Positions 2,190 through 28,953 of a DNA stretch of 37,909 nucleotides are shown here, in pieces. Below the pieces are notes generated by a model. That model made no database searches, was not told the origin of the DNA, and was given only the letters and a program-made list of their open reading frames with translations. Position 1 is the stretch's first letter. Every line of letters begins with the position of its first letter. Made by a program: the position numbers and the translations under genes. Origin of the DNA: a virus; UHGV virus genome UHGV-0127965, one strand, 5' to 3'.

Positions 2190-2830
2190 TGGGCGGCCTC
2201 CTTGCGAATCTGCTCCCTGAACAAGCGGGCTGAGACGATGATGTCTCTGATGCGTACTGATTTTTCGTCGAACTGCTCACCACTGTTTTTAATATGCGCA
2301 TCCAGTTCTGCACTGTGATGCTGGATGAAAGCGTTGAGGCACTGCGCACGCACTTCAGCCAGGAAAGCGTCGGTGGCTGGGGTTTTGTTATCTGACTCCA
2401 GCCACTGGTTGTAGTAATAATCGAACATGCCAGTAGGATAACCACATCCGCTGTGCACGTGGTCTTTCATAGCAGAACCACACATGCAGTAGTCATTGTC
2501 AGTATTACTAATGATGTCGATAAGTTGCTGTGTCCGTTGCTTCAACATCGCATTCTCCGCCGCCAGCGCCGAAAACTTCTCGTGTGCCAACTTAACAGCT
2601 GCATCAGCCTGCTTAATTGACTCAGTCGCTTTCTGGTGGTCTTCGGTCAGCCCTGCTAAATCAGCCTCCAGTTCGGCTAGGCGTTCATTTAATGCATCTC
2701 GTTCATCCAGTAGAGCCAGCACAACCTGAGGTGTGACTTTCATACGAAATGCCAGCAATTTTTGAGGCGTTGCTACTGTTTCAATTGCTACTGCTGCCTC
2801 ACGCAGTACCTGATAGTCAATCTTGCTCAC
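2186..2830 (-). CDS. Ead/Ea22-like protein (GTG start, about 214 aa)
   Basis: Track ORF 2186..2851 begins at a GTG with no RBS; the in-frame GTG at 2828-2830 has an AAGGAGG RBS and gives an [13 protein letters not shown]-terminus. Confidence 0.55.
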
Positions 2831-2994
2831 TGGTTGCCTCCTTTGCGCCACATAGCATTCAGATATTTGTTTTGATTCACTGATGGAAAAGAATTTATCT
2901 TAAGCAATTCCTCTCTCGATGGCATTGGCTTTACGCGTTGGCGAATAATCATTTCTGCCGGAAGAATGCCGGGATTGTATGCAATTCCTCTCAT
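2827..2994 (-). CDS. Hypothetical small protein, 55 aa
   Basis: Internal ATG of track ORF 2827..3027 with a GAGGAA RBS; the upstream ATGs lack an RBS. Confidence 0.4.
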
Positions 2995-3004
2995 TGTAAA
3001 TTCC

Positions 3005-3301
3005 TCAGTCATTACTGATAGCGCCATAGCGTGAGCGGTAATTACGCAGGCGCGGGTCGATATATTCAGGGAAGTGGGTATATGTGGCTTTGCGTAATGG
3101 TCGGATTGATGTTTCGTTTATTCGGTCTTTTTCCTGTTTTTCTGCGAGTTGTATATCGCGTCGGTACTTCCGTTCTGCTTTTGTTTCTGGTGGCAGAGCA
3201 AGAAACGCGCCGAGATTATTCTTGATACTTTCCAGCACCTCCGATACGGAATTGCCGGAACAGCGGCGCGGGTCATCCGCACCATACAGAGGCGCTGGCA
3301 T
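3005..3301 (-). CDS. Hypothetical protein, 98 aa
   Basis: ATG with AGGAG RBS; in the early operon. Confidence 0.5.
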
Positions 3302-4277: not shown

Positions 4278-4741
4278 TTGCTCCACCTCTTGCCAGTTTT
4301 TATGTTGCTTATAATTGATTGAGATACACCCATGTCTTTTGCTATCTTGTACTGACTCTCTTTTTCAGAGAGTCTTTTCCTAATTTCTATAACCTGCCAC
4401 TCTGTTAATTTTGCACCATGATGAGCATGACCTTTTTTGGCTCCACGATGCCTTCCTTTTGCTATCTTGTCGTCCATGTTTTCTTGCGCGCTACCTAAAA
4501 AGAGATGTTCAGGATTAACGCAGCATGGGTTATCGCATTTGTGGCAAACCATCTTCCCAGATGGGATGGGGGAGTGATAAAGCTCAAAAGCAACCCGATG
4601 AGAAAGCATTGTTACGCCAAAGGCTACAAATTTTGTGTATCCTCCTTTGTTTTTTGAATAGGTAGACTCCCAGCAACCTGTTGTTTCATTAACTTTGTAG
4701 CTGGACTCGAATCTTTTAATAATTCCGTCCAAGTGAGACAT
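4274..4741 (-). CDS. HNH homing-type endonuclease (HNH_3-like with C-terminal HTH)
   Basis: [18 protein letters not shown]...N HNH core; abuts the recombinase stop and the ssb start with no intergenic spacer. Confidence 0.75.
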
Positions 4742-5449
4742 TTATGCCGCCTGTTTTAGTTCGTTAACTCTGATGCTCATTACCTGAACGCATTTAGCCT
4801 GCGCCTCCTCGTTGCCAGCCATTAATTGCCAGTCACGCTGATAACGCTCGATGAGTTTTTTCTTGTCAGTTTCTGTTGACGCATAATCGCTGAAGTCTTT
4901 CAGGATTTGTTCGCAGTCAACCGATGGAGATTTCTGGTTGATATTTTCTGGTGATGGTTTGTTATCTGATGCTGGGATTGCCCATCCCGGAAGCGATGGA
5001 GGGAGCCAGTAAAATCCTGTTCCATCTTTCAGTTTTGCCCTGTGCCATCCCTGCTTTTTATCGAGAGATGTTTGTGCGAAACCTTCCTCAAGGTTATACA
5101 GATACCGACCGATTCCCCACTGAACGGCAGCGCGCTTCATTGCACCGGAACGACCACCTTTGACGGCTTCTACCTGCGTGTTTTCAGCAGCATCCCATTT
5201 GGTTACCCATTCGGAATCAATCTTGATTGATATGCCGCATTCAACTCCGCCGTTGTTGGGAATATCGCGGTATTCATTGCGCCATCCTGCTTTGCCGCAA
5301 ACATCGTCCAGGCGTTTCATGATTGCCCGGTTCGTGACATAAGCCAGCACCATAGCCCACACCTTGCCATCGCGTGTTTTACCGCTTTGCTGTATTCGCC
5401 ATTCGATATCTTCAGGGCTGAATGGCTCATCGAATTTATTCAAATCCAT
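4742..5449 (-). CDS. Rad52/22-family single-strand annealing protein (Sak-like recombinase)
   Basis: 235 aa; resembles Rad52-like recombinases of enterobacterial prophages (from memory); sits where lambda bet or P22 erf would be; GAGGTG RBS. Confidence 0.65.
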   Translation of the reverse strand: MDLNKFDEPFSPEDIEWRIQQSGKTRDGKVWAMVLAYVTNRAIMKRLDDVCGKAGWRNEYRDIPNNGGVECGISIKIDSEWVTKWDAAENTQVEAVKGGRSGAMKRAAVQWGIGRYLYNLEEGFAQTSLDKKQGWHRAKLKDGTGFYWLPPSLPGWAIPASDNKPSPENINQKSPSVDCEQILKDFSDYASTETDKKKLIERYQRDWQLMAGNEEAQAKCVQVMSIRVNELKQAA

Positions 5450-5919: not shown

Positions 5920-6888
5920 TTAGTAGGTTATTTTTGTTGCGAATACTTCGCCTTTTACGATGGCTATTATGATATTTTTAGCAACATCTTCTGATGCGCC
6001 AACCTTGATAAGGTCAGCAAGTATTTTGTTATTTACTTCTTTCCGGTGAGCTTTATCCTTTGCTCTACACTCTTCTTCTTCCTTGATTCTTTTTTCTTCT
6101 GCTATTCTGGCTTGCTCTTTTGCTTCAGCCTCGCGCCGGATTCGTTCAGCCTCCTCCTGTGCTTTTCGGCGTTCTGCTTCAATTGCCGCCTGCTTTTCTC
6201 TTTCAGCTCGTTCTGCTGCCTCTTTTGCTTCGCGCTGTGCTCGTTGCTCGGCTTCAATGCGTTCACGCTCTGCACGTTCCGCTGCGGCCTTAGCTTCTGC
6301 TTCTCGCCTTGCTGCTGCTTCAATTTCGGCTTTTGCCTTTGCTTCGGCTTCAGCTCTGGCTTTCTCTTCAGCTTCTCTTTTTAAGCGTTCTTCATGCTCT
6401 CGCTTTTCCTGCTCAGCTTTGAGTCTTGCCTCTTCTCTTTGGCGGTCAAATTCGCGATCCATCAAAATCGCTATTTCATGGTCAGACTCAATTTGCTTTG
6501 CGAGAGCTTCAGCTGCTGCCTTAGCTTCTTCTTCGGCTTTAATCCGCGCCTGTTCTTCCTCATAATCAGTAAGAGGCTGGCGCGCCTTGGCTTTCAGTTC
6601 ATCAAGGCGATCACGCACTGTCTTGCGGTTGGCATCAATTAGCTTTGGAATTTCCTTAAGTTCAGCAACAAGGTCTTTGCCAAGACCATCGAGATATGTT
6701 TTCGTCTGCGCAACTTTATACGCCAGAGAAGCGATCTCCTTTCTGCCCTTTGCCGTTGTGATATCAGGCACAAAGGACATAACTTCACGTTCAACCTTTT
6801 GAAGGATTTCTTCAATCTGGTCGGCAGACTGAAATACAGTCATTGCATTTGCTTTTTCAATAACAACTAAATCTGTTACTTCACTCAT
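5920..6888 (-). CDS. Coiled-coil protein with long E/A/K/R low-complexity repeat, 322 aa
   Basis: GGAGG RBS; structured N-terminal 100 aa then about 180 aa of AEAKA/EEKAR repeats; function unknown. Confidence 0.6.
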   Translation of the reverse strand: MSEVTDLVVIEKANAMTVFQSADQIEEILQKVEREVMSFVPDITTAKGRKEIASLAYKVAQTKTYLDGLGKDLVAELKEIPKLIDANRKTVRDRLDELKAKARQPLTDYEEEQARIKAEEEAKAAAEALAKQIESDHEIAILMDREFDRQREEARLKAEQEKREHEERLKREAEEKARAEAEAKAKAEIEAAARREAEAKAAAERAERERIEAEQRAQREAKEAAERAEREKQAAIEAERRKAQEEAERIRREAEAKEQARIAEEKRIKEEEECRAKDKAHRKEVNNKILADLIKVGASEDVAKNIIIAIVKGEVFATKITY

Positions 6889-6900
6889 ATATCCTCCATC

Positions 6901-6927
6901 AAAAAAATTGCCCTCACATTAGAGGGC
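6901..6927 (-). terminator. tL1-like intrinsic terminator inside the pL operon
   Basis: Minus-strand hairpin GCCCTC-N6-GAGGGC followed by AAT7; lies after the first post-N gene and before the rest of the operon, consistent with N-dependent readthrough. Confidence 0.6.
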
Positions 6928-7031
6928 AAAGAAGATTTCCAATAATCAGAACAAGTCGGCTCCTGTTTAGTTACGAGCGACATTGCTCCGTGTATTCACT
7001 CGTTGGAATGAATACACAGTGCTTATTTGTA

Positions 7032-7502
7032 CTAATAAAATACCCAATTTTCTGTTTCTTGGTTGTGTCCAAAGTTATATTCAATATCTGGTGTTGATGT
7101 ATCAATATTCTTCATCCCATCAACAAGAGTTGATACAACAGCCAAATCTTGTTTGATTCTCATTAAATGGTATTTCTTCCGGCGCAATAAACTTTCAATG
7201 GCAAGTTTCTTCGTTGGGAATGCAAAAGATCTTTCTGCATTTTTTGCTACTTTCTTAATTGCATATCTATTTCTCTTTTGTTTCCATTCCTGTAACCACT
7301 GATTTGGTGCTGGTTTAAAATTAACAATCCAATGCGCAGGAACCAACCATGCATAATGCTCTGTCTGATGAAAAGCTATATATTGAAGTGCGAATATTTT
7401 GATTCCATCTTCTTCAACTGTCGCCTGGAATCTCCAGAAAACAGGCATTCCATCATGTTCAGTTTCTGATTCAGGAAAAGGTACGCTCCATGATTTTGTC
7501 AT
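7032..7502 (-). CDS. Hypothetical AT-rich cargo protein, 156 aa
   Basis: GAGGTGAG RBS; markedly AT-rich compared with neighbours; sits where lambda ral/sieB lie; no family recognised. Confidence 0.55.
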   Translation of the reverse strand: MTKSWSVPFPESETEHDGMPVFWRFQATVEEDGIKIFALQYIAFHQTEHYAWLVPAHWIVNFKPAPNQWLQEWKQKRNRYAIKKVAKNAERSFAFPTKKLAIESLLRRKKYHLMRIKQDLAVVSTLVDGMKNIDTSTPDIEYNFGHNQETENWVFY

Positions 7503-23765: not shown

Positions 23766-25060
23766 TGGCATTAAATGAAGGTCAACTGGTCACGTATGCT
23801 CTGGATGAAATCATCGAAACCGTCCAGAACCTGACGCCAATGGCGTCCAAAGTGACAAAATACACCCCTCCGGCAGAATCCATGCAACGTTCAAGCAACA
23901 CCGTGTGGATGCCTGTTGAGCAGGAAGCGCCAACTCAGACTGGCTGGGATTTAACTGGCAACGCTACCGGTATTCTGGAACTCTCCGTGAAATGCAACAT
24001 GGGCGATCCGGATAACGATTTCTTCGAGCTTCGTGCAGATGACCTGCGTGATGAGCGTTCTTACCGTCGCCGCATCCAGGCATCCGCCAAAAAACTGGCG
24101 AATAACATTGAGTCAGCAATTGCCAAACAGGCAACCGAAATGGGCTCGCTTGTTGTTCACGATACCCGCGCAATTGGTCCATCTACTGGCCTGTCTGGCT
24201 GGGATTTTGTGTCTGATGCAGAGCGCCTGATGTTCTCCCGCGAACTCAACCGCGACATGGGCATCAGCTACTTCCTGAACCCTGACGATTACCGCAAAGC
24301 AGGCCGCAACCTGGTAGATGGTGACATCTTCGGGCGCGTTCCTGAAGAAGCGTATCGCAACGGTACTATTCAGCGTCAGATTGCTGGCTTTGATGAAATT
24401 CTTCGCTCACCGAAACTTCCGGCAGTTACCAAGTCAACCGCGACTGGTGTAACTGTTTCTGGTGCGCAGAAGTTTAAGCCGCAGGCATACACCCTTGATA
24501 CCGATGGTAACAAAGAGAACGTCGACAACCGTGTTGCAACGGTGACTGTATCCTCCACCACCGGGTTTAAGCGCGGCGACAAAATCAGCTTCACTGGTGT
24601 GAAATTCCTGTCTCAGATGGCGAAGAACGTGCTAACTGATGATGCGACTTTCTCAATCACCCGTGTGATCGATGGTACTCACATCGAAATCACGCCGAAA
24701 CCGATTGCACTGGATGACGCGTCACTGACAAAAGAAGAGAAGGCTTACGCTAACGTAAACACCTCTCTTGCTGATACCACTCCGGTAAACGTTCTGAACG
24801 TGGCAACAACCACCGCTAACGTGTTCTGGGCTGATGACTCAATCCGCCTGCTGTCTCAGCCGATCCCGGTAACCCATGAACTGTTTGCTGGCATGAAAAC
24901 GTCTTCCTTCAGCATTCCTGGTATTGGTGTTAACGGCATCTTCGCAACGCAGGGTGATATCAACACTCTGTCTGGTAAGTGCCGTATTGCTGTGTGGTAT
25001 TCAGCATGTGCTGTACGACCAGAGGCAATTGGTGTTGGTCTGCCTAACCAGACCGCGTGA
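23765..25060 (+). CDS. Major coat protein (P22 gp5-like)
   Basis: 431 aa; MALNEGQ...[15 protein letters not shown]...FAGMKT.SFSIP...GLPGQTA-type similarity to P22 coat. Confidence 0.95.
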
Positions 25061-25068
25061 TAACCAGA

Positions 25069-25091
25069 GGGAGCTCCGGCTCCCTTTTTTA
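25069..25091 (+). terminator. Intrinsic terminator or attenuator after coat
   Basis: GGGAGC-TCCG-GCTCCC hairpin followed by T6. Confidence 0.6.
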
Positions 25092-25104
25092 TCTGGAGAC
25101 AAGC

Positions 25105-25353
25105 ATGACACACATGATCTTTCGTCATGGCGACATGAAGAAGTGGAAAGGCGTTGGCTACGACTTTGAAATCGTGAAAGCCGAAGAGATTCAGGAATAT
25201 CTGGATGCTGGTTGGTTTGCACATCCCGATGACCTTCTGAAGGATGTTGCAGAGCCAGAGCCAGAGCCAGAGCCAGAGCCAGAAGAAAAACAGCGTAAAA
25301 AGCCTGGTCGAAAACCTAAGGAGGCAGCAGATGAACCTGACAACGAAGGGTGA
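25105..25353 (+). CDS. Small acidic protein with an (EP)n repeat, 82 aa
   Basis: ATG with GGAG RBS inside track ORF 25057..25353; carries [11 protein letters not shown] from the GAGCCA tandem repeat. Confidence 0.5.
25252..25281 (+). repeat. (GAGCCA)5 perfect tandem hexanucleotide repeat
   Basis: Read directly: five exact GAGCCA units inside the small ORF after coat. Confidence 0.9.
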
Positions 25354-25831
25354 TTTAGTTCTTGCGGCATTACGTAAGCTCGGTGTGGCATCAAATGCCA
25401 CGTTAACCGATGTCGAACCGCAGTCTATGGAAGACGGCGTTAACGACCTTGAAATGATGATGGCTGAATGGCTTGGCGGTGATGCGTCACCAGGCATCAA
25501 CGTTGGCTACATTTTCGCTGATGCAGATGTCGCTCCAGATCCTGGCGATGAACACGGTTTATCAAATAACGCTATCAATGCCGTCATTTTCAACCTTGCC
25601 TGCCGCATTGCTCCGGATTATGCGCTGGAAGCGTCTGCAAAACTTATAACCACTGCCAGATACGGGAAAGAGCGACTCGTCAAACTGTCTGCAATGGACA
25701 GAGCAAAAGCCGCAAAATGTAAGTCCGGTTATCCAAACCGTATGCCTGTTGGCAGTGGAAACCAGTTGGCGAAGTGGAACGGTTGGAATTACTTCCACCG
25801 AAAGGAACCTTGCGATAACGGGAGCGAATAA
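25331..25831 (+). CDS. Head completion / tail-hub protein (P22 gp4-like)
   Basis: 166 aa starting [33 protein letters not shown], matching P22 gp4; AGGAGG RBS. Confidence 0.85.
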
Positions 25832-27249
25832 TGCCGATTCAGCAACTTCAGCTTATGAAAGGTGTCGGCAAAGACTTTCGAAACGCCGACTATATCGACT
25901 ATCTGCCAGTGAATATGTTGGCTACACCCAAAGAAATCCTGAACAGCAGCGGATATCTTCGCTCATTCCCGGGCATTGCCAAACGTTCTGATGTGAACGG
26001 CGTATCGCGCGGAGTTGAGTACAACATGGCGCAGAGTGCTGTTTATCGCGTGTGTGGCGGCAAGCTGTACAAAGGAGAAAGTGAAGTCGGTGATGTTGCC
26101 GGAAGTGGTCGTGTATCAATGGCGCATGGTCGGACATCTCAGGCTGTAGGCGTTAATGGCCAACTGGTCGAGTATCGTTATGATGGCACGGTTAAAACAG
26201 TCTCAAACTGGCCTACAGACAGCGGATTCACGCAGTATGAGTTAGGTTCTGTTCGTGACATTACGCGCTTACGCGGGCGTTATGCGTGGTCAAAAGACGG
26301 CACTGATTCATGGTTTATCACTGACCTTGAAGACGAATCGCATCCTGACCGCTACAGCGCACAATATCGCGCAGAATCGCAGCCTGACGGCATCATCGGC
26401 ATCGGAACATGGCGAGACTTCATCGTCTGCTTTGGTTCATCGACGATTGAATATTTTTCCCTGACAGGTGCAACAACTGTTGGTGCTGCTTTGTATGTCG
26501 CACAGCCATCACTGATGGTGCAAAAAGGCATCGCCGGGACTTACTGCAAAACGCCATTCGCTGATTCTTATGCGTTCATCAGCAATCCGGCAACAGGTGC
26601 GCCGTCTGTATACATCATCGGCTCCGGTCAGGTATCACCAATCGCCAGCGCGAGCATTGAGAAAATCCTTCGTTCCTACACTGCTGATGAACTGGCTGAT
26701 GGTGTGATGGAATCGCTGCGATTTGATGCTCATGAGTTGCTGATTATCCATCTTCCGCGTCACGTCCTCGTGTACGACGCATCTTCAAGCGCCAATGGTC
26801 CGCAATGGTGTGTGCTGAAAACAGGACTGTATGATGATGTGTACCGCGCTATCGACTTCATTTACGAAGGCAATCAGATAACGTGCGGCGATAAACTGGA
26901 GTCCGTGACCGGGAAATTGCAATTCGATATATCTTCACAATACGAAAAACAACAAGAGCATATTTTATATTCCCCTCTAATAAAGGCAGATAACGCTTTA
27001 ATAAATGACCTTGAATTAGAAACATCTGGCGGCGTGTGTGATAGAATAGATAAAATATTTATATCAGCCACTACAGATGGAATTAGTTACGGTCGTGAGC
27101 AAATGGTCGTATTACAAAAACCATTTGTATATGACAATCGCGTTTTATGGCGAAAGGTTGGTCGAGTTAGACGCCTCATTGGATTTAAATTCAGAGTTAT
27201 TGCAAAAGGTCCTGTCACATTATCAGGCCTTTCTATTCGTGTAACATAA
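25831..27249 (+). CDS. Tail accessory / head completion protein (P22 gp10-like)
   Basis: 472 aa in the P22 order after gp4; the final 110 codons or so are AT-rich, unlike the rest. Confidence 0.8.
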   Translation: MPIQQLQLMKGVGKDFRNADYIDYLPVNMLATPKEILNSSGYLRSFPGIAKRSDVNGVSRGVEYNMAQSAVYRVCGGKLYKGESEVGDVAGSGRVSMAHGRTSQAVGVNGQLVEYRYDGTVKTVSNWPTDSGFTQYELGSVRDITRLRGRYAWSKDGTDSWFITDLEDESHPDRYSAQYRAESQPDGIIGIGTWRDFIVCFGSSTIEYFSLTGATTVGAALYVAQPSLMVQKGIAGTYCKTPFADSYAFISNPATGAPSVYIIGSGQVSPIASASIEKILRSYTADELADGVMESLRFDAHELLIIHLPRHVLVYDASSSANGPQWCVLKTGLYDDVYRAIDFIYEGNQITCGDKLESVTGKLQFDISSQYEKQQEHILYSPLIKADNALINDLELETSGGVCDRIDKIFISATTDGISYGREQMVVLQKPFVYDNRVLWRKVGRVRRLIGFKFRVIAKGPVTLSGLSIRVT

Positions 27250-27270
27250 ATCGAAACTCAAGGAGTAGAT

Positions 27271-27804
27271 ATGTTAAGTGAAAACGCAAAAGATATCGAA
27301 GGATATGAAGGACTGTACGCCATCACTAATGATGGTAGAGTTTACTCGCATTCAAGAGTAAATTTGAGGGGGCGTCTTATTAAGGGGAGGTGGCTGAAGC
27401 ATAATCATAACGTAAATGGATATAAGTATGTGTGTTTATATAAGGATGGCGTAAAAAAGAACATACTAATACATAAGCTTGTTGCATCTCACTTTGTTGG
27501 TGGATTTGCTGAAGGGTTACAGGTAAATCATATAGATGGTGATAAATATAATAATAACTATCTAAATCTTGAATGGGTTACTCCATCAGGAAACATCTCA
27601 CACTCATATGGATTGGAATCGAGAGGTAATGTAAAAGGAGAAAGGAATGGTAATTCTAAAATATCTAATGATGATGTCATAAAGATAAAAGAAATGGTTG
27701 CCAATGGATTTCCTCAGTGTGAAGTTGCTAAATTATTTGGAATTCACAATTCAAAGGTTAGTAGAATTGTAAATGGCAAGGCATGGAGGCATGTTAATGG
27801 CTGA
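27271..27804 (+). CDS. Free-standing HNH homing endonuclease (NUMOD4-like plus HNH plus C-terminal HTH)
   Basis: [16 protein letters not shown] (NUMOD4-like), HKLVASHF...[24 protein letters not shown] (HNH) and a C-terminal HTH; AT-rich island; AGGAG RBS. Confidence 0.8.
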
Positions 27805-28498
27805 TTCGAATCTCAACACCCCTGTTATTGTGCAGGCTACACGACTCGATACATCAATCCTTCCACGCAATATATTCAGCCAGTCTTACCTGCTGTATGT
27901 CATAAATCAGGGTGCTGATGTTGGCGCAATTGCCGGGAAGGCAAATCAGGCTGGTCAGGGCGCTTACGATGCTCAGGTAAAAAACGATGAACAGGACGTC
28001 GAACTGGCAGATCATGACGCAAGAATCACCGCAAACACAAAAGCGATAAATCTCCTTGAGGTCAGGTTAACAACCGCCGAAGGGAAGATAGTCGTACTGC
28101 GTAGCGATGTTGATTACTTGCTGGATGAGGTTATCGCTATTCAGGCGCATCTGGTCACTGTTGACCAAAGACTGGATGTCATAGAAAGCGATGTATCTGA
28201 CATTAAGAGTGATTACGTATCGAAAACCGTAACCGAATCGCAGTCTCTTGCGTCACCGCTGGATGTAAAAACATCATATTCAGTTGATGGAATTCAGGTC
28301 GTTGGAGCAAGGCAGACCGGATGGACTGCAGCCACAGGTACACCTCTTCTTGGCTCATTCAACGCTAACCAGTCATACACGGTCGGCACTACGTACACAC
28401 AATCCGAAGTCGCGGCTCTCGCTACAGGTTTGCAGCAGGCTCGGCAGCGTATTCTGGCGCTTGAAACGGCACTTAGATTACATGGGCTGATTGACTGA
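27797..28498 (+). CDS. Tail needle protein (P22 gp26-like)
   Basis: N-terminus [28 protein letters not shown] and a trimeric coiled coil as in P22 gp26; GGAGG RBS; start overlaps the HNH gene end. Confidence 0.85.
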
Positions 28499-28953
28499 TG
28501 ATTACATTCAAACCAACGCGAAACATCGACCTGATCGAAGCTGTCGGAAATCACCCTGACATTATTGCCGGGAGCAACAACGGTGATGGATACGACTACA
28601 AGCCTGAATGCCGTTACTTTGAGGTGAACGTGCACGGGCAGTTCGGCGGCATTGTTTACTATCAGGAGATTCAGCCGCTGACATTCGATTGCCACGCCAT
28701 GTACCTGCCAGAGATTCGCGGCTTCAGCAAGGAAATCGGGCTGGCGTTCTGGCGATACATTCTGACTAACACCACCGTTCAGTGCGTCACATCGTTCGCT
28801 GCGCGCAAATTCCGCCACGGGCAGATGTACTGCGCAATGATTGGCCTTAATCGTGTAGGAACCATCAAGAAATACTTCAAAGGCGTGGATGACGTGACAT
28901 TTTACAGTGCTACACGCGAAGAACTAATCGAATTCCTGAATCACAGGAGATAG
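28498..28953 (+). CDS. gp14-like ejection/assembly protein (positional assignment)
   Basis: 151 aa between gp26-like and gp7-like genes, where P22 gene 14 lies; sequence not confidently recognised. Confidence 0.5.
   Translation: MITFKPTRNIDLIEAVGNHPDIIAGSNNGDGYDYKPECRYFEVNVHGQFGGIVYYQEIQPLTFDCHAMYLPEIRGFSKEIGLAFWRYILTNTTVQCVTSFAARKFRHGQMYCAMIGLNRVGTIKKYFKGVDDVTFYSATREELIEFLNHRR

Follow-up and report, generated by a model that had tools for sequence, protein, structure and literature searches.

An I-HmuI-like HNH endonuclease gene with a foreign gp10 3′ end: a probable homing island in the late operon of a P22-like phage

Between gp10 and the tail needle gene gp26 of a P22-like phage (Lederbergvirus, HK620-like) lies an AT-rich island that we interpret, with a probability of about 0.72 and on the strength of sequence comparison, as a free-standing I-HmuI-like homing endonuclease gene together with a co-converted flank. 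The flank is the 3′ end of gp10 (the "tail" in what follows), which has been replaced by a deeply diverged homologous segment. The element is of a known kind, and the gp10/gp26 case is clean and testable and changes no general concept. The features are collected in Table 1; "the window" refers to the whole stretch of DNA analysed, 37,909 nt in length.

Table 1. Features of the gp10/gp26 island and its surroundings (positions are those of the window).
Feature	Position	Strand	Remarks
gp10 (tail accessory / head-closure protein)	25831-27249	+	472 aa; PF11134, E=1.5e-280
gp10 native body	25831-26930	+	94-95% nt identity to HK620, HZ41, Sf6 and 683R2 gp10
Foreign AT-rich gp10 3′ end (tail)	26931-27249	+	Includes the stop at 27247-27249
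Candidate endonuclease target in gene-free gp10, with putative immunity-conferring differences	26931-26996	+	Both left junctions fall here
Spacer	27250-27270	+	21 nt; Shine-Dalgarno AAGGAG at 27260-27265 for the endonuclease gene
Free-standing I-HmuI-like HNH endonuclease gene	27271-27804	+	177 aa; ATG at 27271; GC 0.35
NUMOD4 coding part	27289-27441	+	Pfam
HNH_3 coding part	27469-27594	+	Pfam
Catalytic motif codons	27526-27594	+	N86 27526-27528; H87 27529-27531; N99 27565-27567; N108 27592-27594
C-terminal helical/HTH coding region	~27655-27774	+	
Dual-use right junction	27785-27804	+	GGAGG at 27785-27789, 7 nt 5′ of the gp26 ATG
gp26 tail needle gene, native	27797-28498	+	94-100% nt identity to 683R2 and HZ41 from 27798 on

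The island is set apart by its base composition. GC falls from ~0.50 to 0.35, with the fall beginning within gp10, and a windowed calculation gives positions 26915-27804 a GC of 0.352 (mean of the window 0.477, sd 0.033; z = -3.8), which is the lowest value among all 890-nt windows of the stretch. A sequence-only reading had placed a NUMOD4/HNH gene between gp10 and the tail needle gene, described these two genes as adjacent in canonical P22, and put the onset of AT-richness about 330 bp inside the 3′ end of gp10. All three statements are borne out: both Pfam domains score above their cut-offs, gp10 and gp26 adjoin in relatives (a 3-nt gap in P22 and a 1-nt overlap, TAATG, in HK620 and Sf6), and sequence comparison locates the switch at 26931, 319 nt before the end of gp10. 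The gp10 body has a GC of 0.51 and a GC3 of 0.49, and the tail a GC of 0.357 and a GC3 of 0.22.

The right-hand end of the island is shared between two genes. The overlap of the endonuclease stop with the gp26 start, also noticed in the sequence-only reading, amounts to 8 nt (ATGGCTGA), such that the stop TGA (27802-27804) falls in gp26 codons 2-3, and the GGAGG ahead of gp26 is read within the endonuclease codons W-R-H-V-N-G. This stop/start arrangement is kept in all alleles, the Providencia allele included, and gene-free phages have AAGGAttgagTAATG at the position of the carriers' right junction. The gp26 start was set at ATG 27797 (MADSNLN...) by homology with HK620, P22 and Sf6; by the same homology, a start at 27773 that would give a longer open reading frame is not the real one. 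At the left-hand side, the spacer ATCGAAAC(N3)AAGGAGTAGAT lies 5′ of every allele at the gp10/gp26 site, and also 5′ of a related gene between gp4 and gp10 in UPF_BP1.

What kind of element carries the gene? gp10 is complete with its own stop and is followed by AAGGAG and an ATG, which places the endonuclease gene outside any intron or intein; with Rfam giving no match as well, a group I intron or intein context is ruled out. A transposon-like or IS-like insertion is likewise ruled out by the lack of inverted, terminal or direct repeats. No + strand promoter or terminator was found at the island.

The encoded protein is predicted to be an I-HmuI-like NUMOD4-HNH endonuclease with nuclease activity. 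Pfam matches comprise PF07463 (NUMOD4; 49.5 bits, cut-off 23.4) at residues 7-57 and PF13392 (HNH_3; 39.3 bits, cut-off 24.8) at residues 67-108. Helix-turn-helix matches at residues 129-168 stay below the Pfam cut-offs (HTH_23, 18.6 bits; HTH_38, 16.2 bits), and the AF2 model of the protein (pLDDT 91.2) has C-terminal helices at residues 133-144, 149-156 and 160-167 with pLDDT >90. A phmmer comparison aligns residues 7-174 with residues 4-163 of I-HmuI (1u3e_M; E=8.4e-21, ~31% identity), and the same chain was the sole match at E<=0.001 when the model was compared with the PDB by Foldseek (E=1.3e-9, 178 columns, TM 0.53). Residues N86, H87, N99 and N108 align with I-HmuI D74, H75, N87 and N96 and, together with H111, do not vary across 55 homologues, the most distant of which are 34% identical; the His and Asn expected of a catalytic HNH motif are present. 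The I-HmuI metal ligand D74 is replaced by Asn (N86) here and in all 55 homologues. Because N86 is invariant in the clade, Asn at this position is probably a subfamily trait under selection, as judged from the alignment; we came across no characterised enzyme that carries Asn there, and in Skunavirus E1127_59 the residue is D.

The gene also appears to be under selection for function. The open reading frame is intact in 32 of the 34 HNH-carrier loci that were examined, the other two being ended by a contig end and interrupted by IS1, respectively, and dN/dS of the endonuclease gene is 0.04-0.15. A decaying pseudogene is ruled out on these grounds, and the combination of intact genes, strong purifying selection and invariant catalytic residues argues that a nuclease function has been maintained.

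By sequence comparison, the 3′ end of gp10 is a foreign homologous segment and not a recoded native one, and here the sequence-only reading, which had called it recoded, has to be revised. The tail is in frame and completes the 472-aa gp10, and it shares 56-60% nt and 61-65% aa identity with the HK620 and P22 tails (61% aa to HK620), which are 95% identical to each other in amino acid sequence. Synonymous recoding is ruled out, since 39% of the residues differ from HK620 and dN is 0.33. The tail is 96-97% nt identical to the tails of HZ41 and of a further carrier locus, L006, and dN/dS among tail variants is 0.07-0.18. As for the donor, sequence searches found no full-length AT-rich gp10: tblastn of the tail against phages returned only HZ41 above 70% aa identity, a scan of genome contigs returned one native-type Citrobacter locus only, and a protein homologue search with the 109-aa tail yielded no more than 7 fragments. 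Nearest to a donor are the tails of Providencia prophages (63-69% nt identity).

The island is sporadic among close relatives. The P22-like region was matched in 914 of 5426 complete E. coli genomes, and the AT-rich tail is present in 56 of these 914 (~6%), with 36 carrying the allele described here, 16 the HZ41 allele and four a third tail type; one of these last four genomes was examined, and a third HNH allele is present there. Among 50,697 phage records, this clade occupies the gp10/gp26 site only in HZ41, and the gene is absent from P22, HK620, Sf6 and CUS-3. Homologous phages therefore do not all carry it. Citrobacter, Providencia and uncultured sources also have the cassette at this site, and three sites in P22-like genomes hold a promoter-less cassette with the same spacer. 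An HNH_3+AP2 gene of the vB_EcoP-683R2 type occupies the gp10/gp26 junction in 16 E. coli genomes. We found no description of the gp10/gp26 island in the literature that was searched.

Within this distribution, the linkage of tail and gene is complete, holding in 56/56 E. coli genomes and 28/28 IMG/VR loci. The gene begins 21 nt 3′ of the AT-type tail in all 28 of the latter, among which one locus is ended by a contig end and one has IS1 inside. At native-tail loci, gp26 abuts gp10 in 26/26 cases (25 from IMG/VR and one Citrobacter genome).

The history of the tail is not that of the gene it completes. L006 has a gp10 body of the P22 lineage (94% identity to P22, 83% to the window), yet its tail is 97% identical to the window and 59% identical to P22. 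More generally, the tail phylogeny is discordant with that of the flanking gp10 body and tracks the endonuclease gene, a result that supports the co-conversion proposed in the sequence-only reading. The main tail type is paired with at least 6 gp10 body types and 12 gp26 5′ types. Alignment with insert-free relatives, suggested in the same reading as a way of defining the junctions, sets the left junction at 26931 or 26961 in all carriers, both positions being recurrent, and the right junction precisely at the gp26 ATG, with lineage-specific gp26 sequence beginning directly 3′ of it in every carrier. Lineage-specific markers reach ~12 nt from the left junction, and just 5′ of 26931 the markers agree with those of two endonuclease-free loci, L050 and L040. 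The unit is not uniform either. About nine endonuclease alleles occur overall, at least three of them on the main tail type; one tail type pairs with three alleles that are ~50% aa identical (177, 181 and 182 aa), and an 87%-identical allele is paired with a 78%-identical tail. These discordant tail and endonuclease histories mean that the unit is itself mosaic and not always co-inherited.

A further observation comes from the endonuclease-free locus L040, in which a 58-nt patch (26931-26988) identical to the window lies within an HK620-type tail. Such a patch hints at a target near 26931-26996. No further copy of the patch junction was found in IMG/VR or in metagenome contigs, and it is a single case.

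How would such a unit spread? In cells in which a gene-free relative replicates alongside a carrier, the enzyme would nick or cut the gene-free allele, probably in the 3′ part of gp10 at about 26931-26996 and less probably at the gp10/gp26 junction, and repair would then copy the carrier's sequence over the whole interval between the break and the start of gp26, the endonuclease gene included. The tail of the carrier would derive from a deeply diverged, AT-rich P22-like lineage; we propose that this origin is the reason why the tail is always copied with the gene and that its ~45% nt divergence makes the carrier immune. The cassette would be cheap for the phage. The foreign tail encodes a full-length gp10 C-terminus under purifying selection, and the endonuclease gene would bring its own ribosome-binding site and, lacking a promoter of its own, would be carried along in the late operon. 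The last endonuclease codons would provide the GGAGG and the overlapping stop, such that gp26 could stay translationally coupled. Nuclease activity, target position and biased inheritance in mixed infection are the three elements of this model that we infer.

Complete linkage and sharp junctions are also expected from ordinary recombination around non-homology, here at the edges of a block only ~56% identical to its alternative, and it is for this reason that active homing is proposed rather than taken as observed. One hypothesis is that the tail and the HNH gene form a passive mosaic module, acquired once from a diverged P22-like phage and then shuffled among lineages by ordinary homologous recombination in the conserved flanks, like other lambdoid/P22-like modules, with the nuclease irrelevant to spread or active elsewhere. 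The sharp junctions can have been "polished" by repeated recombination of this kind, for which no nuclease is needed. Such a history would suit the high mosaicism of P22-like genomes (no single E. coli prophage matches more than 68% of the window), the independent variation of gp26 types and gp10 body types around the island, and the modest prevalence of ~6%. However, the endonuclease genes are intact and strongly constrained, with invariant catalytic residues, which argues for a maintained nuclease function, and in several independent backgrounds the crossovers lie no more than ~12 nt from the edge of the tail rather than anywhere along the 1.1-kb homologous body. The existence of a short conversion patch without the gene in L040, and of the same promoter-less cassette and spacer at three P22-like sites, also argues against a passive module, which we consider unlikely.

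If the enzyme is active, does it recognize the tail or the point at which its own gene is inserted? I-HmuI acts within a few bp of its own intron insertion site, which counts in favor of the insertion site, and the gp10/gp26 junction of gene-free phages carries a conserved sequence, AGGATTGAGTAATGGCTGAT, that is disrupted in carriers. The use of this junction by another HNH family, unrelated to the first, would fit as well. The tail would then be dragged along while strand invasion waited for resection to reach the conserved gp10 body, and a tail identity of ~56% would push crossovers to the left edge of the tail. On the other hand, the L040 patch lies ~260 nt away and is not contiguous with the junction, and free-standing endonucleases typically cut at a distance, within a neighbouring gene (PMC2988022). 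We therefore hold a junction target to be possible, if on balance improbable, and favor a target within the 3′ part of gp10.

Two further readings concern what the nuclease is for. The position of the gene in the late operon beside virion genes, and the observation that HNH proteins help terminases in some cos phages (PMC12724721), could suggest that the protein is not selfish and has been domesticated by the phage, for example to assist packaging or the terminase, as happens in HK97-like phages, or to act as a nuclease in defence or exclusion. But the gene is missing from ~94% of similar prophages, and P22, HK620 and Sf6 assemble and package normally without it. The protein is built like the homing enzyme I-HmuI and not like a short packaging HNH protein, the composition of the gene is AT-rich and foreign, and several allelic as well as unrelated HNH genes use the same site, all of which makes domestication very improbable. 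A different possibility, to which we give little weight, is that the gp10 3′ end and the gp10/gp26 junction are a contested site, where endonuclease alleles of different specificities displace each other next to one common "immunity" tail and are also in competition with the AP2-HNH family, the nuclease serving mainly as a weapon between co-replicating temperate phages. If so, the process would amount to marker exclusion of the kind known from I-HmuI and I-HmuII, and not to simple self-propagation; an example would be an induced prophage against a superinfecting relative, and the essential gp10 C-terminus would be a battleground that drives its own unusual divergence.

Most work on homing endonucleases has concerned virulent phages such as T4, SPO1 and Skunavirus, and the homing island proposed here would be a clear example from P22/HK620-like phages, which are temperate and open to genetic work. 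Sequences are already at hand for carriers and gene-free partners that occur in nature, as well as for one gene-free allele that may be resistant, and the predicted target region of ~65 bp is directly testable. The island would explain a sharp mosaic boundary within an essential virion gene, and the endonuclease gene would be nearly cost-free because the essential gene that follows obtains from it both a ribosome-binding site and its translational coupling. For annotation, the divergent gp10 C-termini in ~6% of these P22-like E. coli prophages would be hitch-hikers of a selfish gene and not adaptive tail variants.

The closest characterised relatives are I-HmuI of Bacillus phage SPO1 (PDB 1U3E) and I-HmuII, both intron-encoded HNH nicking homing endonucleases. 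The protein described here shares the three-part build of I-HmuI, with a NUMOD4 beta-sheet, a beta-beta-alpha-metal HNH fold and a putative C-terminal helix-turn-helix, and conserves the general-base His (H75/H87) and the Asn ligand (N96/N108). It differs in the invariant Asn at the D74 position and in overall sequence, in its setting, since I-HmuI lies inside a group I intron and the gene here is free-standing between two genes, and in its host, a temperate enterobacterial podovirus. Members of the I-HmuI family exclude flanking markers of related phages (PMC2988022).

In layout, the island resembles the "intronless homing" genes SegF, SegG and MobE of T-even phages, which are likewise promoter-less cassettes in the same orientation between conserved essential genes and are sporadic among close relatives. 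Free-standing phage endonucleases of this kind cleave DNA hundreds of bp away from the gene that encodes them, with co-conversion of the sequence in between, and the inheritance of hundreds of bp of a neighbouring gene along with the endonuclease fits such a distant cut (PMC2988022). The enzymes themselves differ, Seg being GIY-YIG and MobE an HNH protein with a different DNA-binding part. Cleavage and cross data support the T-even cases. In the present one, the flank is a deeply diverged homologue (61% aa) instead of a few polymorphisms, and the hosts are temperate.

Free-standing I-HmuI-like HNH genes of the same protein family have been described in Skunavirus, where they group by insertion site, distinct HNH genes may share one site and some show marker exclusion in vivo (PMC12724721). 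The HNH motif region has ~80% nt identity over 70 nt with PhiE1127_59, whose HNH protein was without activity in an assay against sk1 (PMC12724721). Unlike the gene described here, the Skunavirus genes keep D at the D74 position and lie mostly in the replication module of virulent phages, and a foreign-tail architecture was not described there. The vB_EcoP-683R2-type HNH_3+AP2 gene, finally, shares the insertion point between gp10 and gp26, the orientation and the preserved coupling to gp26, and ends with a copy of the gp10 3′ end, AGGATTGAGTAATG. Its DNA-binding module is unrelated (AP2, not NUMOD4/HTH), and the adjoining gp10 tail is native, with a GC of ~0.50 and 89-95% identity to HK620 and Sf6.

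The window comprises all or most of the genome of a Lederbergvirus, a P22-like phage of HK620/CUS-3 type. In P22, HK620 and Sf6, gp10 directly abuts gp26, the tail needle gene, as the sequence-only reading had stated for canonical P22, and the endonuclease gene that it had placed between the two is borne out by a 177-aa ORF with matches to NUMOD4 (49.5 bits) and HNH_3 (39.3 bits), both above the curated Pfam thresholds. Because the gp26 ATG lies at 27797 and the endonuclease stop at 27802–27804, the two genes overlap by 8 nt (ATGGCTGA), an arrangement that had likewise been read correctly. ORF calling adds 27773–27796 to gp26 by starting from an earlier in-frame ATG (27773, MARHGGML...) within the endonuclease gene, but by homology the real start is at 27797. 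The proposed AT-richness also holds, with GC over 26915–27804 equal to 0.352 versus 0.477 ± 0.033 across the remaining 890-nt windows (z = −3.8), the minimum of the window. RefSeq already names the gene product 'NUMOD4 domain-containing protein', and no published description of the island or of the linked gp10 tail was found in the literature searched.

Features of the gp10–gp26 locus and left junctions of the foreign block among the loci compared (L numbers)
Feature	Position	Size	Remarks
gp10	25831-27249	472 aa	Pfam Phage_stabilise, E=1.5e-280
Spacer	directly 3' of gp10	21 nt	contains AAGGAG
Endonuclease ORF	27271-27804	177 aa	
gp26 (tail needle gene)	ATG at 27797		MADSNLN...; start same as HK620, Sf6, P22
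Left junction	26931		window, L013-16, L020-25, L031-34, L054
Left junction	26961		HZ41, L006, L010, L017-19, L026-30, L035-39

The AT-rich composition begins inside the 3' end of gp10, as had been noted: identity of the window to HK620, Sf6 and the phages HZ41 and 683R2 is 94–95% up to 26930 and 46–68% from 26931 on. The description of this gp10 tail as recoded does not survive comparison, and the sequence is instead foreign. Over the last 96 codons, protein identity is 61% to HK620 and 65% to P22, whereas HK620 and P22 are 95% identical to one another over the same codons despite saturated synonymous divergence. At third codon positions the foreign tail (GC3 0.22) and the endonuclease gene (0.28) have less GC than the gp10 body (0.49) and the HK620 tail (0.57). 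Tail variants across carriers are under purifying selection (dN/dS 0.07–0.18). Divergence, composition and selection together argue that the tail is a functional gp10 C-terminus from a lineage that does not belong to the known P22-like pool of E. coli and Salmonella. Closest to it (63–69% nt, 72% aa) are the tails of Providencia rettgeri prophages, in which GC is about 0.44 over the whole of gp10 and a NUMOD4-HNH gene occupies the same place; a search for a closer donor found none.

A match to the gp10/gp26 region is found in 914 of 5426 complete E. coli genomes, and 56 of these carry the AT-rich tail, so the gene is not present in all homologous phages. The window's endonuclease allele accompanies the tail in 36 of the 56 (identity ≥ 98.8%) and the 181-aa allele of phage HZ41, about 50% identical in amino acids to the window's, in 16; the remaining four have an 86%-identical tail, and the one opened has a third HNH allele. 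Every genome with either the window or the HZ41 endonuclease body falls within the 56. In IMG/VR the gene lies 21 nt downstream of an AT-type tail in 28/28 loci (one cut by the contig end, one interrupted by IS1), and gp26 abuts gp10 at each of the 26 loci whose tail is native-type (25 IMG/VR loci and one in a Citrobacter genome). In 50,697 phage records, HZ41 alone carries a member of this NUMOD4-HNH clade at the gp10/gp26 site. The order of gp10 stop, conserved spacer, HNH gene and 8-nt gp26 overlap recurs in a Citrobacter genome, two uncultured assemblies and Providencia (spacer of 27 nt), with endonucleases 44–87% identical to the window's. The interrupted locus, L028 (IMGVR_UViG_2861079508_000003), has its endonuclease gene broken after codon 5, from 2851 onward, by an apparent IS1 identified visually by its end sequence, and in E. 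coli ETEC6333/6334 (NZ_CP122600, NZ_CP122604) about 1.3 kb separates the tail from the endonuclease body; these cases are insertional inactivations in resident prophages.

Comparison with insert-free P22-like genomes, which the sequence-only reading had proposed, resolves the junctions. All carriers share one of two left junctions, lineage markers specific to HK620, Sf6 or P22 extend to about 12 nt or less from it, and the right junction is exactly the gp26 ATG, after which lineage-specific gp26 sequence resumes. In locus L006 the gp10 body is closer to P22 (94% identity) than to the window (83%), and the tail is closer to the window (97%) than to P22 (59%). Tails of the main type (≥ 93% nt identity) follow at least six gp10-body types and precede at least 12 gp26 5' types. 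By these alignments the gp10 body tracks phage lineage and the tail does not. One tail type pairs with three endonuclease alleles ~50% identical to each other, and an 87%-identical allele pairs with a 78%-identical tail; recombination therefore also occurs inside the cassette, apparently at the conserved spacer together with the ~60 nt that follow it, and again in the gene's final ~25 nt.

Is the gene product an active nuclease? Against all PDB chains, the single phmmer match is I-HmuI (1u3e), the SPO1 intron endonuclease (E=8.4e-21, residues 7–174 of 177), which is also the sole significant Foldseek match (E=1.3e-9, 178 columns) of an AlphaFold2 model made from 55 homologues (mean pLDDT 91). 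Weak helix-turn-helix matches cover residues 129–168. The catalytic His and Asn residues expected of an endonuclease are found on alignment, where H87 corresponds to the general base H75, N99 to N87 and N108 to the metal ligand N96 of I-HmuI; however, the second ligand, D74, is replaced by Asn (N86). N86, H87, N99, N108 and H111 are invariant across the 55 homologues, at identities down to 34%, which makes Asn a feature of a large subfamily and not a sign of decay. No characterised enzyme with Asn at this position was found, and lactococcal E1127_59, unlike the window's protein, has Asp. The dN/dS of 0.04–0.15 for allele pairs with unsaturated synonymous divergence indicates that the endonuclease genes are maintained by selection. 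With the reservation of D74 to N, the protein is a predicted nuclease of the I-HmuI-like NUMOD4-HNH family.

How, then, would the block move? Free-standing phage endonucleases can cleave in a neighbouring gene, hundreds of bp from their own, with co-conversion of the interval (PMC2988022). The putative enzyme would nick or cut gene-free gp10 near the equivalent of 26931–26996, and repair off a carrier template would copy foreign tail, spacer and gene as far as gp26, with the ~45% nucleotide divergence of the tail rendering carriers resistant. An alternative hypothesis is a cut at the gp10/gp26 junction itself, with the tail dragged along because strand invasion cannot start in 56%-identical DNA. 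An endonuclease-free P22-like prophage (L040, the same as L068; IMGVR_UViG_2703718772_000030) speaks weakly against the junction cut: a 58-nt patch equivalent to 26931–26988 matches the window at 23/23 positions that distinguish it from HK620, and the rest of its tail is HK620-type. Such a patch would be the expected residue of nearby break repair in which copying from the carrier ended early. The prophage may hold a conversion footprint or else an allele that confers resistance, and this is a lone observation, IMG/VR and metagenome contigs having yielded no further copy. Ordinary recombination around a block without homology in the alternative allele would also serve, and the complete linkage of tail and gene and the sharp junctions are expected from it too.

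An intron and a transposon are ruled out, and the genetic behavior of the island is that of intronless homing, as for SegF, SegG and MobE, with activity and biased inheritance predicted. Among published systems, the nearest counterpart is found in lactococcal Skunavirus, whose free-standing I-HmuI-like genes group according to insertion site; different genes may occupy one site, and some of them exclude markers (PMC12724721). The island provides a clean case for testing in temperate phages, a tractable system, and accounts for a mosaic boundary within an essential virion gene.

The cassette is, judged from its signals, built to be harmless to the phage, since no + strand promoter or terminator was found within 26500–28600, it carries its own AAGGAG, and its C-terminal codons W-R-H-V-N-G encode a GGAGG 7 nt upstream of the gp26 ATG. 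This GGAGG, kept in all alleles, takes the place of the AAGGA...TAATG coupling of gene-free phages.

Related genes occur at this and other sites. In Salmonella phage UPF_BP1 (L011, KX776161), a NUMOD4-HNH gene (801–1502; 43% aa identity) lies at the gp4/gp10 junction, downstream of ~70 nt duplicated from the gp10 5' end (MKGMGKDFKNADYIDYLPVNMLA) and preceded by the same spacer, ATCGAAACTTTAAGGAGTAGAT, as at window 27250–27270; as annotated, the HNH CDS and the beginning of the full-length gp10 ORF overlap. The arrangement suggests that the same promoter-less cassette has moved to an ectopic site. Escherichia phage N7 (L066, MH717096) has a 172-aa paralogue (2501–3022; about 45% aa identity) between the Q antiterminator and holin genes, a third insertion site of this clade in P22-like genomes, and Salmonella phages ST-35 and 29485 have paralogues with 47–48% aa identity. 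The first ~100 nt of these three genes, including the ribosome-binding site, are 78–83% identical to the window's gene. At the gp10/gp26 junction of vB_EcoP-683R2 (L002, ON470594), an unrelated 164-aa HNH_3+AP2 gene (4422–4916), annotated 'endolysin', adjoins a native gp10 tail; its 3' end is a copy of the gp10 3' end (AGGATTGAGTAATG), so coupling to gp26 is preserved, and 16 complete E. coli genomes contain this gene.

Elsewhere in the window, a hexanucleotide repeat, (GAGCCA)x5, at 25244–25300 encodes EP and QS dipeptide runs in two overlapping ORFs (25057–25353 and 25244–25831). These ORFs are flanked by the coat gene and gp4, and the second of them, as called, probably includes the gp4 gene. 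The second most AT-rich region (6600–7330, GC 0.33–0.39, minus-strand side) spans a 156-aa ORF (7032–7502) and the 5' end of a Glu/Ala/Lys-rich ORF of 322 aa (5920–6888).
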